In this document: positions 47,014 through 57,953 of the stretch, piece by piece | Numbering within the stretch: position 1 is the first letter of the stretch | How the letters are laid out: every line of letters begins with the position of its first letter | DNA from: a virus | Length of the DNA: 64,000 bases | Strand: one strand, 5' to 3' | Virus record (IMG/VR): IMGVR_UViG_3300024503_000419 | The notes under the pieces: model-generated | The model's input: only the letters and a program-made list of their open reading frames with translations | What the model was told of the DNA's origin: nothing | The model's database searches: none | Position numbers and translations under genes: made by a program

Positions 47014-49986
47014 ATGCCTAATTGCTCTCCTTGTGGATGTTATGACAATATAACCCTTACTACCCAAACAGGATTGTCATTCAATGCAAACGACTTTGTG
47101 CAGTTGTATGATGGTGTTAATTCTTACATATGGGGTGAAATTGTTTCATATAATAGTGGAACTGGAGAACTAGTTCTTAAACCTTGTCAATTTTGTGGAG
47201 ACGCAGGTGTTATAACTAATTGGACCATCACGTTATCTGGCATCCCTGGCCCAAGTGGAACTAGTGGAATAGGAATCTTTACTGCTGGTTCTGGTACTTG
47301 TTCTTCTATTAGATGTGGTGTTAATAATACAGCACCAGGTGATTATAGTTTTGCTGGAGGTGGTCAATGTAATACAGCTGGTGGGTGTCACTCATTTGTT
47401 GGTGGTGGATATCTAAATATAATCAGTAATAGTAATGGTACATGTAACTCAGCAATTGTAGGTGGAAAATTTAATATAAATCAAACTAGATTTTCTACTA
47501 TAGCTGGAGGAGAGTGTAATCAAATCTTAACATTATCAGGCTATGAGGGTTGGAGCTTTATTGGTGGAGGATCTTATAATATAATTTGTGGTTCTTCTCA
47601 TACAATTTCTGGAGGTAACTATAATACTATTACTGCTGGAACATATGGAACAGCCCAAGCTCACTTTATTGGTGGAGGTAACTGTAATACTATTAGTAGT
47701 GATTATAATACAAACACTATTTCTGGAGGTTACTATAACACCATAAGCGGCATGTATACCACAAATGCTTTTATTGGTGGAGGAAATACTAATACTGTTT
47801 GTTCACAAAATTCAAGTATTTTATCAGGATTCTGTAATACTATTAGTAGCAACTGTTGGAATCCAAACTCAGCTGGTTCATCTACCATACTATCAGGATA
47901 TAATAATAACATAACATGTAATACACTCTCATCTGCTATTGTTGGCGGAAGATATAATACAATATCAGGAGGATATTCCGCATTTATAGGTGGTGGTGAG
48001 TGTAATATTGCTGGTATTGGTTATTCAACTGTTAGTAGTGGTTATTGCAACGTAGCATATTATGGAGGATTTGTTGGTACAGGAGCGTTTAATACGGCTG
48101 GCGCTGGTGAATCATTTATAGGAGCAGGTATGTATAATACAGCTTGTGGAATACATTCAGCAATAGTAAGTGGACAATATAATACTATATCTTCAAATTA
48201 TTCATTTATTGGTGGAGGAAGGTTTAATGTGAATGGAGGAGACTGTTCATCTATTGCAGGTGGTACTTATAACTATACTTATGGACAAAACTCAACTGTT
48301 GGTGGAGGAGATGGTAACCAAGCGTGTGGATCTTATTCAGCAATTGTTAACGGTTTATTAAATACAGCAAGTGGTTATAACTCAGTAGTATTAGGTGGTA
48401 GGGGTAATACAGCATCTGCTCCATATAGTGCAGTATTTGGCTGCGGATTAACTAACTCTGTAGCTTGTTCATTCAAAGCCAATAGATTAATTGCAGCTAA
48501 CTTAGCAACTGCTGGTTGTGCTGTTTGTACTGATGCAAATGGAATGTTAGTTCCATACACTGCAGGTGGTGGTGGAATTATGGTTGCAGGTGCAGGTTGT
48601 AATTCTACACTTAGATGTGGAGTTAGTAATACTGCATGTGGAGATTATAGCTTTGCAGGTGGTGGACAATGTAATACAAACGGAGGATTAGCTACAAGTA
48701 TAGTAGGAGGTACAAATAACACAGCAGCACAATATGTGTCTTGTACATATAATATAACAAATTCCAATTTATATGGAATGGGCTATTTGCAATTAAATAG
48801 CTCTTACGGAGATGTTACATCAATGTTCCCAAATGGTTCTACAGTAACGATGAACTCAGCCACTTATGGTCTAATGACAGGACAGGTTACTGTGAGTAAC
48901 TACTACGGCTGGATACCTGCCACTGTAATTGCAACGACTTGCTCCTCTTTCTATTGTGATTTTACAACCATCACTGGAAGTATAGGTTCTTCAAACTCAT
49001 TTATAGGAGGTGGACAGTATAATACAGTTTGCTCAAATAATTCAAATATTGTAGGTGGCCGTAGTAATACAATTCATCCAGCTTATTCAGCAATAGTAGG
49101 TGGGTGTAATAATACAGTTTGTTCTAAGCGTTCATTTATAGGTGGAGGAAGTTATAACATAATAGATGGGTATTCAAATACTGCAACTATTGTGGGTGGT
49201 ACTGGTAACTGTATTGCCCCTAATTACAACAACTCATTTAGTGCATATTATACATTTATTGGAGGCGGTACTTCTAACTTTGCTAGTAATCAATACTCAA
49301 CTATTGTTGGTGGATGTGCAAATAGTGCTAGTGGTTACTCATCATTTATTGGTAATGGATACCAGAATGCTGCTCGTGGATACTATTCTGCAGTAGTTGG
49401 AGGTGGTAGTAATATAGTAGACGGTGATGGTTCATTTATTGGAGGTGGTTATTTTAACACGGTTTGTTGTAGCCAATCAGTAATCCTAGGAGGTATGGGT
49501 AATACAGCCTCTGGAAATTATTCAGGAGTATTTGGATGTTGTATTGTTAACAGTATTGCTTGTTCTTTTGCATCAAACCAATTGTGGGCTTGTAATCTTG
49601 TAGGTACAACAGTTGCTTTATGTGTTGGAACAAATGGTGTGATTGTTAGAAATAGCTCTGACATACGTTTAAAAACAAACATCTGTGGTCTTTCTTATGG
49701 ATTATGTGATGTTAAAAAACTGAACCCTGTTAGCTTTGACTGGAATGAAACAGCAAGAGAAACTAGAGGATGTAATAGACAAATTGGCTTCATAGCTCAA
49801 GAGGTTGAACCAATTATACCAGAAGCAGTAGGTAGAAGTGCAGAGAGTGATGAAATGTCTCTAAGTCCAGAGAAAATAATTCCAGTTCTTACTAAAGCAT
49901 TACAAGAATTAAGTGCTAAATTTGATGCTCAAGAACAAAAAATAGCTACCTTAGAGGATATAATCAAAAGAAACAATTTAGTTTAA
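47014..49986 (+). CDS. Beta-helical tail spike/fibre with a C-terminal Peptidase S74 intramolecular chaperone
   Basis: 990 aa; many S(F/A)I(G/V)GGxxN repeats; SDIRLKTNI, LNPVSFDWN, IGFIAQEV and IPVLTKALQEL chaperone motifs. Confidence 0.85.
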   Translation: MPNCSPCGCYDNITLTTQTGLSFNANDFVQLYDGVNSYIWGEIVSYNSGTGELVLKPCQFCGDAGVITNWTITLSGIPGPSGTSGIGIFTAGSGTCSSIRCGVNNTAPGDYSFAGGGQCNTAGGCHSFVGGGYLNIISNSNGTCNSAIVGGKFNINQTRFSTIAGGECNQILTLSGYEGWSFIGGGSYNIICGSSHTISGGNYNTITAGTYGTAQAHFIGGGNCNTISSDYNTNTISGGYYNTISGMYTTNAFIGGGNTNTVCSQNSSILSGFCNTISSNCWNPNSAGSSTILSGYNNNITCNTLSSAIVGGRYNTISGGYSAFIGGGECNIAGIGYSTVSSGYCNVAYYGGFVGTGAFNTAGAGESFIGAGMYNTACGIHSAIVSGQYNTISSNYSFIGGGRFNVNGGDCSSIAGGTYNYTYGQNSTVGGGDGNQACGSYSAIVNGLLNTASGYNSVVLGGRGNTASAPYSAVFGCGLTNSVACSFKANRLIAANLATAGCAVCTDANGMLVPYTAGGGGIMVAGAGCNSTLRCGVSNTACGDYSFAGGGQCNTNGGLATSIVGGTNNTAAQYVSCTYNITNSNLYGMGYLQLNSSYGDVTSMFPNGSTVTMNSATYGLMTGQVTVSNYYGWIPATVIATTCSSFYCDFTTITGSIGSSNSFIGGGQYNTVCSNNSNIVGGRSNTIHPAYSAIVGGCNNTVCSKRSFIGGGSYNIIDGYSNTATIVGGTGNCIAPNYNNSFSAYYTFIGGGTSNFASNQYSTIVGGCANSASGYSSFIGNGYQNAARGYYSAVVGGGSNIVDGDGSFIGGGYFNTVCCSQSVILGGMGNTASGNYSGVFGCCIVNSIACSFASNQLWACNLVGTTVALCVGTNGVIVRNSSDIRLKTNICGLSYGLCDVKKLNPVSFDWNETARETRGCNRQIGFIAQEVEPIIPEAVGRSAESDEMSLSPEKIIPVLTKALQELSAKFDAQEQKIATLEDIIKRNNLV

Positions 49987-50005: not shown

Positions 50006-50227
50006 ATGGCAGATTTAACAGCCTTAGAGGCAGAATTAAGAGCAACTCAATTAGAAATTGAATTAGCAAGAAAAGCTAAAATGGAAGCATTTATTGCACA
50101 AAGAAAAGCTGAGGAAGAAGCAGCAGCAGCAGCTGAGGCAGCAAAAACTCCTGAGCAAAAAGCAGCAGAATTGCAAGCTAAAATTGATGAGCATAAAGCT
50201 CGTTTAGCTCAATTAAAAGCTGAATAA
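50006..50227 (+). CDS. Small Ala/Glu/Lys-rich coiled-coil protein, possible fibre assembly factor
   Basis: 73 aa directly after the spike gene. Confidence 0.55.
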   Translation: MADLTALEAELRATQLEIELARKAKMEAFIAQRKAEEEAAAAAEAAKTPEQKAAELQAKIDEHKARLAQLKAE

Positions 50228-50231
50228 AAAT

Positions 50232-50262
50232 TTTGTTATTCAAAATAGTTGGTTTACCTTTG
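50232..50262 (+). promoter_or_regulatory. Bacteroidota-type promoter of the GT9/sulfotransferase/PAPS operon
   Basis: TTTG (50232-50235), 19-nt spacer, TACCTTTG (50255-50262): perfect consensus. Confidence 0.85.
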
Positions 50263-50281: not shown

Positions 50282-51148
50282 ATGAATATAATATTCCAAA
50301 TTAATGGCGGTATTGGCAAGGTGATTGCTGGTACCGCCATTTGTGCTTCTATCAAGGCTAAGTATCCTGATAGTAAACTTATTGTTGTCTCTGGTTATCC
50401 AGATGTATTCTTAGGTAATAAGAATGTTGACAGAGCATACGCTTTTGGACAACAGGCTTATTTCTATAAGGAATACATTGAGAATCAAGAGATTATGGTA
50501 TTTGCACACGATCCATACTTGGAAGCAAAGCACATTAAACAAGATGAACACCTTATTGAAACATGGTGTAATTTGTACGGTTTACCAGTAACAAAGACTG
50601 TTGGAGAGCTATTTCTTACACAGAGAGAAATAGATTTCTTTAGCAAAAAATTTGTTTCTGATAAGCCTATTTTTTTGATGCAAACTAATGGTGGTGCTGA
50701 GACAGAACAGAAATACTCTTGGGCTAGAGATATTCCTAGCTATATAGTAGAGAATGTTATACATGAGTTTAGAGAGAAGTATAACATTGTTCATATAAAG
50801 AGAGAAGATCAGATAGGTTACGAAGGAACATTTGCTGTGTCTGATACCTTCAGAGCATTGATTGTTCTTATAAACCTTAGTGAAAAGAGATTGTTAATGG
50901 ATAGCTTTGGACAACATGCAGCTGCAGCTTTGAATAAACCTTCTACAGTGTTGTGGGTTGCTAACAGTCCTAAGGTGTTTGGATATGACTTACATACAAA
51001 CATTGTAGCTAACTCAGGAACAATTAGTCCAGAATTAAGAAATGCCTATCTAAGTAAGTATAATATTGGAGGTGACCCTATTGAGTTTCCTTACAACAAA
51101 GAGTCTGAAATATTTAATGTAGATGCTGTAATTAACTCCTTAAAATAA
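50282..51148 (+). CDS. GT9-like (GT-B fold, heptosyltransferase-related) glycosyltransferase
   Basis: NGGIGKVIAGT N-terminal loop; MDSFGQHAAAALNKPSTVLW corresponds to the GT9 DSG..H.AAAL..P.V.L motif. Confidence 0.7.
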   Translation: MNIIFQINGGIGKVIAGTAICASIKAKYPDSKLIVVSGYPDVFLGNKNVDRAYAFGQQAYFYKEYIENQEIMVFAHDPYLEAKHIKQDEHLIETWCNLYGLPVTKTVGELFLTQREIDFFSKKFVSDKPIFLMQTNGGAETEQKYSWARDIPSYIVENVIHEFREKYNIVHIKREDQIGYEGTFAVSDTFRALIVLINLSEKRLLMDSFGQHAAAALNKPSTVLWVANSPKVFGYDLHTNIVANSGTISPELRNAYLSKYNIGGDPIEFPYNKESEIFNVDAVINSLK

Positions 51149-51154
51149 ACCAAC

Positions 51155-51976
51155 ATGGAAAAGATATTCTATCAAAGCTCATTGCCTAGAGCAGGAAGTA
51201 CATTGTTGCAAAACATACTAGCTCAAAATCCTGATATATACGCTACACCTACAAGTGGTGTGTTAGAACTTATATTTGGTGCACGTGCTAACTATACAAA
51301 CTCAGCAGAGTTTAAAGCTCAAGATCCTGAGTTAATGAAAACAGGATGGCAAGCATTTGCTAAAGCTGGAATGGATGCATTCTACAATGCTGTTACAGAT
51401 AAAAAATATGTGATAGATAAGTCTCGTGGATGGGGTATTCACTATGATTTCTTACAGTTTGTACAAGGTGGTGAACCTAAAATCATTTGCATGGTTAGAG
51501 ACCTACGTGATGTATTTGCTTCTATGGAGAACAACTTCAGAAAGCATCCTGAGAAGCAATCAGACATTTTGGATTGGTCTAAAGGTCAAGGTACTACTGT
51601 ACCAAAGCGTATTGATATCTGGTCACAGAATCCTCCTGTAGGACTAGCTATTGAAAGACTAGCTGAGATATTTAGACTAGGTATTAATACTAAAATATTA
51701 TTCATTAAATTTGAAGACCTATGTCTCTATCCAGAAACAGAGATGACAAGGATATATCAATACCTTGGTATACCACACTACCACCATGATTTTGATAACA
51801 TTGAGCAAATTACTAAGGAGGATGATGAAGTGTATGGAGCATTTGGTGATCATGTCATTAGAACAAAGCTAGAGCCTGTTCCTTCTAGAGCAAAAGCATT
51901 GTTAGGGAAAGATGTAGTTGATTGGATATACAACAACTACAAATGGTTTTATGACTATTTTAGATATTCAAAATGA
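51155..51976 (+). CDS. PAPS-dependent sulfotransferase
   Basis: 5'-PSB loop SLPRAGSTLLQNIL, DKSR, 3'-PB motif MVRDLRDVFAS, IKFEDL. Confidence 0.9.
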   Translation: MEKIFYQSSLPRAGSTLLQNILAQNPDIYATPTSGVLELIFGARANYTNSAEFKAQDPELMKTGWQAFAKAGMDAFYNAVTDKKYVIDKSRGWGIHYDFLQFVQGGEPKIICMVRDLRDVFASMENNFRKHPEKQSDILDWSKGQGTTVPKRIDIWSQNPPVGLAIERLAEIFRLGINTKILFIKFEDLCLYPETEMTRIYQYLGIPHYHHDFDNIEQITKEDDEVYGAFGDHVIRTKLEPVPSRAKALLGKDVVDWIYNNYKWFYDYFRYSK

Positions 51977-52416
51977 TTATAGTGTTATTTGGACAGCCTA
52001 ATTGTGGAAAGTCCACATTGGCTGATGCGCTTATAAAGGAAAGGTTTACTATTGTAAACATTGATGGAGACAAGCTCAGAGAGATATTTGTGAACAAAGA
52101 TTACAGCAGAGAGGGGAGAATCAAGAATCTGAACAGGGCTAGTGATATTGCTACGTTCATGAGCACTATTGGGGATGACATCATCCTATCTCTCGTATAT
52201 CCATATAAGGAAGCTAGAGACTACCTCAACAGCTTGTGTGACTCTGTCTATTGGGTTTATTTGACATATGATGAGCCTAGAGGCAGGGAATCATTTCATG
52301 TAAAGGATTTTGAAGAGCCTGGAGATGATGAACGTGTTCTTCGTCTGAACACTTCTACAACATCCATAGAGGACTGTATAACTAAAATAATGACACATGC
52401 AAAACTTCTTGGCTAG
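51973..52416 (+). CDS. cysC: Adenylyl-sulfate (APS) kinase
   Basis: P-loop GQPNCGKST, IDGDKLRE, DYSREGRIKNL, FEEP motifs of CysC. Confidence 0.8.
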   Translation: MIIVLFGQPNCGKSTLADALIKERFTIVNIDGDKLREIFVNKDYSREGRIKNLNRASDIATFMSTIGDDIILSLVYPYKEARDYLNSLCDSVYWVYLTYDEPRGRESFHVKDFEEPGDDERVLRLNTSTTSIEDCITKIMTHAKLLG

Positions 52417-52795
52417 ATCAGCAGGACCCACTTCTTCCAATGACAAGAAATATTCTATGTTTATAGGAAGATGGCAACCCTGGCACGCTGGACACAGATG
52501 GTTAATTGACCAGAGACTCAATGAAGGAAAGAATGTCCTCCTCTGTATAAGAGATGTAGAACCAGATGAGAAGAATCCTTGGACCGCACATCAAGTGATG
52601 TTAAACTTATTCGATGAACTTAAAGACTTGGTTGAATCAGGAAGAGTTAGGGTTATTACTATACCTGATATTGAATCTATTAATATTGGTAGGGGTGTTG
52701 GTTATGATGTCATAGAACACGTACCCCCTCAGGAGATACATGACATATCTGCTACAAAAATCCGTGAGCAAATGAAAGTAGAAGGTAAGCTATGA
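52397..52795 (+). CDS. HxGH-family nucleotidyltransferase, candidate minimal ATP sulfurylase
   Basis: FIGRWQPWHAGH and ISATKIRE motifs; lies between the APS kinase and a DUF2061-like gene. Confidence 0.65.
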   Translation: MQNFLARSAGPTSSNDKKYSMFIGRWQPWHAGHRWLIDQRLNEGKNVLLCIRDVEPDEKNPWTAHQVMLNLFDELKDLVESGRVRVITIPDIESINIGRGVGYDVIEHVPPQEIHDISATKIREQMKVEGKL

Positions 52796-53004
52796 CTGTA
52801 AGCAAGAAAAGACATATAGCCAAAACAATCAGCTACAGGATTGTCAGCACACTCATTGGGTTTGGTATTATGTGGCTAGTGACAGGAAGTGTGAAAATAG
52901 GAGCTGCATTTGGTGTAGCTGAGCTAGTGTACAAGCCTATACAATATTACCTACATGAGCGTATTTGGTATAAATGGATTAGATATGGACTGAAGAAAGA
53001 CTAA
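52792..53004 (+). CDS. DUF2061-like small membrane protein
   Basis: AKTISYRIVST...YYLHERIW signature; this family is often found beside sulfate-activation genes. Confidence 0.75.
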   Translation: MTVSKKRHIAKTISYRIVSTLIGFGIMWLVTGSVKIGAAFGVAELVYKPIQYYLHERIWYKWIRYGLKKD

Positions 53005-57400: not shown

Positions 57401-57848
57401 GGTAACGCTCTAGCATCACCTCTGGTGTTAGATCTGCCTGGTGGTGGGTTTCATACTCATTTCCATACTCTGCTCCATCCTGAGCCATCATATAGGGCAC
57501 AGCTACAAGAAACCTCTTGTCCATCAGGTCAAAGTCTGTAAGCAGGTTTTTAGCTGTGCCTGAGGGTAGGTGTTCTAGAATATCCCCTAAGATGATAAAG
57601 TCATAGGGTCTAACATCAAAGGTGACAATATCCCCTACATAAACATTATCATATTTAGCTCTCAGATTGAACTGATCTACATATGGAGCCCATATCTCTA
57701 CAGCATCCATCCTATATCCTAAATTCCTTAGCAAATCAGAATATGTTCCCTGTCCAGGACCTACATCTAGAATGCGTGTTGATAGGGGAATATTGTCTAT
57801 AAACCACTGCTTTATTTCAGGCTTGAAGTAGGTGTAACTGTTTGGCAT
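54396..57848 (-). CDS. Four-domain enzyme: class I methyltransferase, GT-A glycosyltransferase, GT4 glycosyltransferase and Aah/TibC-type protein O-heptosyltransferase
   Basis: ILDVGPGQG/GDILEH; AYVDSD (DxD); FLAPHLSTGGMP...ECNPLVIREA; SLGDTIAWMPY...FIGLSSGLSWLAWA...CHGCW...WCPVHKGTDRQWEC. Start placed at the ATG at 57848, downstream of the promoter. Confidence 0.85.
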   Translation of the reverse strand: MPNSYTYFKPEIKQWFIDNIPLSTRILDVGPGQGTYSDLLRNLGYRMDAVEIWAPYVDQFNLRAKYDNVYVGDIVTFDVRPYDFIILGDILEHLPSGTAKNLLTDFDLMDKRFLVAVPYMMAQDGAEYGNEYETHHQADLTPEVMLERYPGLEKLYDNQWYGYYVNQDIRWEKAYVLYATESYKDTVQACVDSLRTFSSLPVMVYMLNSDVDIKGAATFRWDCKTKDLPQQKYIDRANPDIYNILIQRPLIVKEALKHAKTVAYVDSDSVATKYVDRIFDYFPVKSAYPYFTEGIYEWMISNGRGGADSRDDLSTTLEHPACELFGVDQYIRDKYRQTGYFVAGEYCQEFLDSWWWMCNHPKVLQNPQYYAPYHEETIANVLLWKYKALDGLPYIYMNGSLNTVNNVTFRTKKQHLAHFVAVPADVDQLLFYHGEKDAVTMYRMLERQKNQLKILFLAPHLSTGGMPAFLLERIADLLAYSKSKIIVVEYSNHSDHFVVQKNQIKEIAHHFYTLGENKMEVIDIIKRHAVDIVHVDEMVEDGWNNWPEEVRQALYSPNRTWRMIETCHNIVFKPDLEKRYHPDAYAFCTPHHLKTFANMPSRKEVIEFPIVKKESEPIDLGPGKHVLNVGLWTAGKNQGEAVELARQMPDVQFHFVGNQAGNFQHYWEPIMKDIPPNVHVWGERDDVGRFMAAADVFLFNSTFECNPLVIREAIGYGLPILARNLPQYGDMFTQYITDLKPEKMKEQLTQLLDTDVSYDIPEGQKLDFAQKHIDLYQEVMNRPIQPDKELINITHTFIHEPFLEITGNSKSTFTVRFYDEQGVCHYENKIKVNHWVKLNRRWFTKWTIKVWKDESIYYEYTLNYEGQRVYIAMDSKSLGDTIAWMPYVLEFKRKHNCHVTVSTFKNFLFESVYPELEFVEPGTGVGNILGMYSVGWFYDGNKEPALCNTIPLQQTATNILGLDFQEIRPRLAFTPGNNSYGRYVTIATNSTAGCKFWQKEDWQLTINFLHENGYKIVNVSKEKNPFDNCEQLEDTSMENTMNVIHHSEFFIGLSSGLSWLAWALNKQVVMISNFTAADHEFSCIRITNENVCHGCWNKAEYRFDAGDWNWCPVHKGTDRQWECQTSIKSEDVIKKIQSWNLIGEHQTPYL

Positions 57849-57868
57849 AACTGATTGGCTTTCTGTTA

Positions 57869-57900
57869 CAAAGATAGAAAAAAGATTTGGTAGTTTCAAA
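57869..57900 (-). promoter_or_regulatory. Bacteroidota-type promoter driving the glycosyltransferase-FkbM-hldD operon
   Basis: Minus strand: TTTG (57900-57897), 20-nt spacer, TATCTTTG (57876-57869): perfect consensus. Confidence 0.85.
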
Positions 57901-57917
57901 TAAATTACATAGATTTG
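57886..57917 (+). promoter_or_regulatory. Bacteroidota-type promoter driving cupin-hldC-hldA
   Basis: TTTG (57886-57889), 20-nt spacer, TAGATTTG (57910-57917): perfect consensus; overlaps the divergent promoter. Confidence 0.85.
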
Positions 57918-57953
57918 CCCCACAAGTGGAGTGTATCCACTTTATGCTATATT

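Follow-up and report, generated by a model that had tools for sequence, protein, structure and literature searches.

A probable sulfation operon of an uncultured river phage with a minimal nucleotidyltransferase as candidate ATP sulfurylase

Gene content and layout of the operon

The 64,000-nucleotide stretch of viral DNA analyzed here (IMG/VR record IMGVR_UViG_3300024503_000419, hereafter the window) belongs to the genome of an uncultured phage (~105 kb) and carries a compact operon related to sulfation. According to the reading of its open reading frames (ORFs), the operon occupies positions 50282-53004 and consists of five genes in one orientation, which code, in this order, for a GT9-like protein, a sulfotransferase, a short-lid kinase of the adenosine 5'-phosphosulfate (APS) kinase type, a small nucleotidyltransferase (NTase) and a DUF2061 protein (Table 1). 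Contigs that measure 58.9 and 105.6 kb have the same gene order. We posit that the operon is a phage-borne and self-sufficient sulfation module, in which the NTase would serve as the sulfurylase, the short-lid kinase would complete the sulfate donor 3'-phosphoadenosine 5'-phosphosulfate (PAPS) and the sulfotransferase would spend it, likely on a sugar of the tail fibers. We consider this probable, though far from assured.

The genes are tightly packed. Sulfotransferase and kinase as well as NTase and DUF2061 are joined by 4-nt overlaps of stop and start codon (ATGA, at 51973 and at 52792), kinase and NTase overlap by 20 nt (52397-52416), and a gap of 6 nt (51149-51154) separates the GT9-like gene from the sulfotransferase. 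The initial annotation, made from the sequence of this stretch, had named the same genes and described them as translationally coupled; ORFs and overlaps match this description exactly, with the GT9-like label as the sole exception (see below). An alternative start of the NTase at the internal ATG 52457 would yield a protein of 112 aa, a form that is also on record.

Table 1. Features of the operon and its putative promoter
Feature	Position	Strand	Length	Remarks
Bacteroidota-type promoter consensus	50232-50262	+		TTTG-N19-TACCTTTG; 20 nt 5' of the GT9-like start
GT9-like putative glycosyltransferase	50282-51148	+	288 aa	weak family match
PAPS-dependent sulfotransferase	51155-51976	+	273 aa	Pfam, motifs, fold
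Short-lid APS kinase (CysC-like; P0003)	51973-52416	+	147 aa	Pfam, PDB matches
Minimal HxGH nucleotidyltransferase (NTase), candidate ATP sulfurylase	52397-52795	+	132 aa	
DUF2061 small membrane protein	52792-53004	+	70 aa	PF09834

The sulfotransferase and the short-lid kinase

By profile, binding motifs and fold, the second gene product is a PAPS-dependent sulfotransferase. It matches Pfam Sulfotransfer_3 (PF13469; 5e-17, 63.2 bits at a cut-off of 27) and Sulfotransfer_1 (PF00685; 5e-12, 46.3 bits at a cut-off of 22) as well as phrog_27463 (1e-42), and its best NCBIfam match is NoeE (7e-9), of the NoeE/NodH-type carbohydrate sulfotransferases. The 5'-phosphosulfate-binding motif (5'-PSB) reads PRAGST and the 3'-phosphate-binding motif (3'-PB) reads RDLRDVFAS, corresponding to RDLRDxxxS. 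When the AlphaFold2 (AF2) model, with a predicted local distance difference test score (pLDDT) of 91.9, was searched with Foldseek, the tyrosylprotein sulfotransferases TPST1/2 ranked best (E 3e-9, TM-score ~0.54), followed by the curacin sulfotransferase domain and heparan sulfate 3-O-sulfotransferases. TPST1/2 (5wrj, 3ap1) are the best match both in structure and in PDB sequence and have the fold for PAPS binding and both motifs, 5'-PSB and 3'-PB, in common with the phage protein. They differ from it in that identity is ~21% at a TM-score of ~0.5 and the acceptor-binding parts are not conserved. Homologs in cultured phages were found solely in the Synechococcus phages S-SKS1, S-SCSM1 and S-SRM01 (28-30% identity), and these three were not matched when the kinase (P0003) and P0004 were searched against the phage collection by tblastn. 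No cultured phage of the collection contains the four-gene module, and DNA searches of the collection retrieved no relative of the window.

The kinase matches Pfam APS_kinase (PF01583) with 1.4e-10 and 41.9 bits, above the cut-off of 21.1, and its top PDB matches are all APS kinases, with 2yvu as the best (1e-8). It scores below the NCBIfam cut-offs (40.5 vs. 138.7 for TIGR00455; 54.9 vs. 127 bits, 1e-14, for NF004041). P0003 contains a Walker A motif (GQPNCGKS) and the sequence IDGDKLR, a version of DGDxxR. The DGD motif is essential for the APS kinase of human PAPSS (PMC11697783). In 37 viral short kinases, Walker A, DGDxxR and a YS..GR..N block are all strictly conserved. Moreover, the APS-binding block DYSREGRIKNLNR lines up with GFSxxDRxENxRR of canonical CysC, and LSLVYPY lines up with its SFISP(F/Y) strand. 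The lid of canonical APS kinases is shortened by ~24 residues in the phage kinase, where RDPKGLYKK...NFTGID is absent and PRGRESFHVKD is found instead. The short-lid form is common to 72 stand-alone viral kinases encoded next to an NTase gene, with a median length of 148 aa. In our reading, P0003 is an APS kinase whose lid is reduced, and its conserved motifs suggest that it may be active in this form.

The nucleotidyltransferase family

The NTase displays the motifs GRWQPWHAGH, GRGVGY and ISATKIR and matches CTP_transf_like (PF01467) with 1e-4 and 22.7 bits (cut-off 21). Its family comprises 1117 clusters at 50% identity, within which Arg9, His14, His17, Arg36, Pro45, the Gly82-Arg83-x-Val-Gly-Tyr loop and SxTxxR are invariant. 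According to VIA-align, the nearest folds to its AF2 model (pLDDT 93.5) are archaeal NMNAT (Z 10.6), PPAT (10.5) and NadM (9.8), while the ATP sulfurylase of Thermus thermophilus (1v47) reached Z 8.1 and other Sat entries 5.5-6.6. In a Foldseek search against the PDB, Sat was absent among the top 50.

With archaeal and NadM-type NMNAT (1f9a, 1ej2, 2qjo; Foldseek E 4e-4) the NTase has GRxQPxHxGH, an NP(F/W)T helix cap and ISxTxIR in common. In contrast to these enzymes, it is ~35-50 residues shorter, its invariant Arg36 and GRxVGY loop are specific to the family, and its genomic partner is an APS kinase and never an NAD-salvage gene. Its scores against NMNAT profiles lie far below the cut-offs (31.5 vs. 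181.2 bits for TIGR01527; 37.1 vs. 127 for NF002243), and the alignments span the ATP-binding half only, ending near residue 94-97. In a hhalign comparison of the NTase family with two Sat sequences, the HxxH segment alone was aligned, with a probability of 8.7%. Because the NMNAT matches fall so far short of the cut-offs and the alignment with Sat is limited to HxxH, the NTase forms a small family of its own within the HIGH superfamily and is by membership neither NMNAT nor Sat. It has the HIGH fold and the motifs of alpha-phosphate nucleotidyl transfer, and both the superfamily and the HxGH motif are common to Sat and PAPSS. An equivalence of GRGVGY with GRDHAG was seen by eye only and is not claimed here, as hhalign did not extend beyond the HxxH segment.

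The combination of an HxGH transferase followed by a DGD P-loop kinase is the logic of the bifunctional PAPS synthases, such as human PAPSS1/2, Aquifex Sat-CysC (2gks) and CysN-CysC. The phage NTase differs from the sulfurylases of these systems in its size (112-132 aa vs. ~390 aa of Sat), and it has no PUA-like N-domain, no match to PF01747 (Sat) and no GTPase partner.

Genomic association of the nucleotidyltransferase with sulfate activation

Human PAPSS1/2 combine an N-terminal APS kinase with a C-terminal ATP sulfurylase, and relatives of the phage NTase are likewise fused to CysC, in both orders. The fusions include full-score CysC (P0188 with 230.7 bits, P0185, P0223 and P0165). Within the 39 cellular loci, which span at least 10 phyla or groups including Planctomycetota, Omnitrophota, the candidate phyla radiation (CPR), DPANN, Marinimicrobia, SAR11 and Flavobacteriales, the NTase accompanies an APS kinase in 36 cases, of which 21 are fusions and 15 are direct neighbors. 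The IMG/VR loci give a similar count, 77 of 79, with the kinase fused in 4, adjacent in 59 and within three genes in 14. cysDN was found in none of these 79 viral loci, a recognizable sulfotransferase in 29, and the order sulfotransferase-kinase-NTase-DUF2061 is repeated in many viral loci. Sulfotransferases are also the most frequent Pfam family among the two neighbors on either side of the NTase-kinase pair in cellular loci. The 128 neighbors of the pair in loci L011-L049 further included His_Phos_1 four times and sulfatases three times; the His_Phos_1 enzyme could be the 3'-phosphoadenosine 5'-phosphate (PAP) phosphatase of such clusters.

The distribution of other sulfurylases was compared with that of the NTase. 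Neither Sat nor a strong CysD was detected in 21 of 26 NTase-bearing genomes. The Flavobacteriales (n = 151) have CysC in 71 genomes (absent in 80) and CysD in 104 (absent in 47). All 65 genomes with CysC and without NTase contain CysD, whereas the six with both CysC and NTase contain neither CysD (0/6) nor Sat (0/6); the Fisher p of 7e-9 is not corrected for phylogeny, and the six genomes may be one clade. In each of them the NTase adjoins a full-score CysC, and the five that were tested (all but G014) carry 1-9 sulfotransferase genes, several of which lie within 15 kb of the pair.

SAR11 bacteria are famous for not assimilating sulfate. The NTase is present in 74 of 101 Pelagibacterales genomes, beside a phage-like short kinase wherever coordinates were compared, and in none of the seven Pelagibacterales genomes with full-score APS-kinase ORFs of 613-639 aa, the size of CysN-CysC. 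Four of five sampled SAR11 genomes, assembled in megabase contigs, encode 2-5 sulfotransferases, no Sat and no CysD. The short kinase together with the NTase is a near-core feature of SAR11.

Since a kinase and sulfotransferases without any sulfurylase would be senseless unless the constant NTase partner supplies APS, comparative genomics points to the NTase as a minimal ATP sulfurylase of a non-canonical kind. This pattern of non-orthologous displacement carries most of the weight of the interpretation. With the NTase in this role, the operon would be self-sufficient for PAPS. The initial annotation had already called the PAPS supply self-contained, and this view gains in weight from the CysC fusions and the mutual exclusion with CysDN and Sat, which make the NTase a likely ATP sulfurylase.

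Alternative roles of the kinase-nucleotidyltransferase pair

Several observations weigh against a sulfurylase and kinase dedicated to sulfation. On the protein level these are the ~24 missing lid residues of the kinase, including the FTGID segment, the alignment with Sat that hhalign confined to a single segment, and the fact that the closest relatives of the NTase by sequence and fold are archaeal NMNAT/NadM and PPAT and not Sat. Sat is present in one and a strong CysD in four of the 26 NTase-bearing genomes, and the absence counts given above are weakened by shared ancestry and by the incompleteness of metagenome-assembled and single-amplified genomes. In one Acidobacteriota locus, an NTase-CysC fusion adjoins cysDN. 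Judged by this locus and by the five of 26 genomes that keep Sat or CysD, the NTase is not always the sole sulfurylase. In the SAR11 genome G237 (L171, 5677-8548), the pair is placed between a Rieske oxygenase and a HalD/WelO5-like iron/2-oxoglutarate enzyme, far from the sulfotransferases. Finally, a fused short-kinase-NTase (phrog_10255, annotated as "kinase") is encoded by Xylella phage Salvo (gp32; L003 5578-6324) and Stenotrophomonas phage DLP6 (L004 4617-5348), where its neighbors are early and DNA-metabolism genes, including MazG, topoisomerase, ligase and an Fe(II) oxygenase, and no Sulfotransfer_3 gene was found in either phage genome. The contexts in Salvo and DLP6, SAR11 and the Acidobacteriota keep two other explanations alive, namely a role of the NTase other than that of a sulfurylase and the activation of another anion.

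According to the first of these, only the kinase and the sulfotransferase would take part in sulfation; APS would be provided by CysDN or Sat of the host, and the NTase would be regulatory, APS-binding or NMNAT-like. NMNAT/NadM being the nearest relatives and the cysDN genes adjoining the Acidobacteriota fusion fit this explanation, and with CysD in 104 of 151 Flavobacteriales many potential hosts could provide APS. However, the NTase lies far under the NMNAT cut-offs and its NMN-binding half is absent. It is never linked to Nampt, nicotinamide riboside kinase or Nudix partners and almost always to APS kinase, and the pair-bearing genomes without another sulfurylase still keep CysC and sulfotransferases. 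We consider a host-fed pathway with an accessory NTase rather unlikely.

The second explanation holds that the pair makes another 3'-phosphorylated adenylyl compound, with an anion other than sulfate, for use by enzymes that are not sulfotransferases. It is weakened by the fusion of the same NTase family to full canonical CysC, by the DGDxxR motif and phosphosulfate-binding block that are invariant in the short kinases, and by the translational coupling of the pair to a PAPS-type sulfotransferase in the window and in many viral loci. SAR11 genomes, too, contain sulfotransferases and no other PAPS source. It draws on the short-lid kinases, which have no FTGID lid and low APS_kinase scores (42-48 bits), and on the copies in SAR11 and in the Xylella and Stenotrophomonas phages, which have oxygenase or DNA-metabolism neighbors and no adjacent sulfotransferase. 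On balance, we regard a non-sulfate product as improbable and keep to PAPS as the likely one.

Sulfation and its possible acceptor

In the literature that was searched, viral cysC is listed only as an assimilation gene, and virome papers routinely place it under assimilatory sulfate reduction. By this token, the operon would be a set of auxiliary metabolic genes that enhances assimilatory sulfate reduction in the host. No motif of the PAPS reductase/CysD PP-loop and no Sat motif was present in window ORFs of at least 45 aa, and searches seeded with CysD and CysN gave zero matches inside the 64-kb window. As no PAPS or APS reductase signature is present in this window, and as translational coupling ties the genes to a sulfotransferase in a fiber and glycan setting, we deem a function in assimilation highly improbable. 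The initial annotation had argued that an APS kinase accompanied by a sulfotransferase, but by no reductase, serves sulfation and not assimilation, and this reasoning is backed.

The operon directly follows two tail-fiber genes. The first encodes a protein of 905 aa with 46% Ser+Thr and 25% Gly, and the second a protein of 990 aa with an S74 chaperone domain. On its other side, the operon converges on genes for an epimerase, an FkbM methyltransferase and an 1175-aa protein with methyltransferase (MT) and glycosyltransferase (GT) domains (MT-GT4-GT9). Genes for a cupin, an HldC-like cytidylyltransferase and a PfkB kinase lie farther along the island. The synteny of fibers, GT9-like gene, sulfotransferase and PAPS genes within an island of heptose, GT and MT genes points to fiber decoration, without proving it.

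The TPST-like fold made tyrosine sulfation a candidate, which was set aside: of the 72 tyrosines in the two upstream fibers, none stands in an acidic context. A sugar or a Ser/Thr hydroxyl is therefore a likelier target than tyrosine of the classical type, and a glycan on the neighboring Ser/Thr-rich fibers is the most plausible acceptor. The sulfated virion glycan that had been proposed initially is favored by the synteny with fiber and GT9-like genes, but the nearest fold of the sulfotransferase is TPST at a TM-score of ~0.5, which fixes no substrate. That sulfated virions mimic polysaccharides on which Bacteroidota forage is pure speculation.

The GT9-like protein would help to make or present such an acceptor, and its assignment is a lead only. 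The NCBIfam match is to RfaQ, with E 0.009 and 14.8 bits at a cut-off of 467; its PHROGs match, phrog_8954, is of unknown function; Pfam GT9 (PF01075) gave no match, and the similarity to the TibC-like domain encoded in the window is not significant (BLASTP E 0.33). In the Atlas, 40 of its 100 nearest clusters are viral, and PF01075 is found on 15% of those clusters' members. The "GT9-like" label draws on the 14.8-bit match and the Atlas neighbors. Homologs are encoded in 31 of the 79 viral NTase loci and usually adjoin the sulfotransferase.

It is also conceivable that PAPS is made as proposed and that the sulfate is transferred to a host structure, be it capsule, lipopolysaccharide, a small molecule or a protein, for instance for superinfection exclusion. 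Bacterial sulfotransferases near the pair belong to gene clusters for cell-surface polysaccharides, alongside Wzx, ABC exporters and GTs, and the fold search leaves the substrate of the phage enzyme unfixed. The setting in the window speaks more for the virion, with the operon directly after two fiber genes in an island that also contains ADP-heptose-type genes and encodes the multi-domain GT/MT protein. The GT9-like and sulfotransferase genes recur as a pair in viral loci and are often preceded by very large ORFs, and no flippase or exporter was found by Pfam and PHROGs among the genes at 43.8-59.4 kb, a scan that did not include short ORFs. Sulfation of a host structure is hence a possibility to which we give some credence, while doubting it.

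The DUF2061 protein

The last gene product matches DUF2061 (PF09834) with 9.5e-18 and 64.8 bits (cut-off 23.1) in an alignment that spans positions 1-51 of the 52-position profile, and its hydropathy profile shows a single hydrophobic hairpin of ~33 residues. In 48 of the 79 viral loci, DUF2061 is encoded no more than three genes away from the NTase, and it is mainly a feature of such loci. On another phage contig, which contains a sheath gene and ClpP, DUF2061 follows a canonical CysC-NTase fusion. Elsewhere, it is fused N-terminally to a canonical CysC upstream of cysD-cysN-cysQ. Because it occurs both beside CysC-NTase and fused to CysC, DUF2061 appears to be tied to the kinase or PAPS step. 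Whether as a membrane anchor or as a route for sulfate is a guess.

Proposed pathway and implications

Taken as a pathway, the NTase would adenylylate sulfate (ATP + sulfate -> APS + pyrophosphate), and the short-lid kinase would phosphorylate the 3'-OH of APS to give PAPS, with DUF2061 as a putative membrane partner, either anchor or sulfate route, of the kinase step. The sulfotransferase would then pass the sulfate on to an acceptor. The GT9-like protein would assist in the synthesis or presentation of this acceptor, for which the most plausible candidate is a sugar carried by the heptosylated, Ser/Thr-rich tail fibers whose genes lie directly upstream. Carrying all of these steps would free the phage from the sulfur genotype of its host, given that 80 of the 151 Flavobacteriales are without CysC and 47 without CysD.

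Full-text searches of the literature retrieved no account of the NTase family as a sulfurylase, of a function of DUF2061 or of a phage PAPS module. In a wider scenario, which we put forward tentatively and with more doubt than the sulfation module itself, the NTase would represent a third class of ATP sulfurylase and the missing source of PAPS in most SAR11 and in those streamlined Flavobacteriales, Marinimicrobia, CPR and DPANN that have it; phages would have captured it along with the short-lid kinase and DUF2061 to make sulfated fibers that affect adsorption to Bacteroidota. An ATP sulfurylase activity of the NTase would make it a third and minimal solution to sulfate activation, which is now annotated as "cytidylyltransferase" or "NMNAT". 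This would explain how sulfotransferases are supplied in organisms without Sat and CysDN, including SAR11, and many viral "cysC" auxiliary metabolic genes would have to be re-read as sulfation modules. It would also mean that a virus brings along the complete cofactor supply to decorate a structure, probably its fibers, and sulfation would join the known glycosylation of virions.

Transcription and occurrence in rivers

The window was found in 18 river metagenome and 6 river metatranscriptome runs; all 24 public runs that contain it are labeled riverine. The sequence preceding the operon fits the TTTG-N19-TAnnTTTG consensus of Bacteroidota promoters in full (Table 1), and the "perfect promoter" of the initial annotation is borne out in this sense, as a consensus match only. 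Eight sites with this pattern were observed in the window against 2.4 expected, a number that was reached in none of 100 shuffles.

RNA contigs from four river metatranscriptomes, with at least 99% identity, cover the whole operon and bridge all gene junctions, which is consistent with co-transcription, short of proof. The contigs also enter the promoter at 50232 from upstream, making read-through from the fiber genes into the operon possible, and they cross the convergent gene ends. For this reason neither a single transcript nor its start site is established, and of the initially claimed co-transcription it is the bridging of junctions that holds.

A divergent pair of Bacteroidota-type promoters, at 57869-57900 (-) and 57886-57917 (+), is located between the gene of the 1175-aa GT/MT protein and the cupin-HldC-HldA genes. 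In three or four metatranscriptomes, the RNA coverage has a gap at 57851-57929, exactly over these promoters, with contigs ending at ~57846-57850 and restarting at 57930 (58049 in the fourth library). The position of the gap argues for genuine RNA over carry-over of DNA.

Between the fiber genes and the operon, a further ORF (50006-50227) encodes a protein of 73 aa without a family match, in which Ala, Glu and Lys are abundant. It is probably a coiled-coil and may have a role in fiber assembly or as a linker. Upstream of it, at the 3' end of the 990-aa fiber gene (49869-49949), linked substitutions vary between river runs and contigs break, which looks like strain-level variation at the fiber tip or chaperone end.

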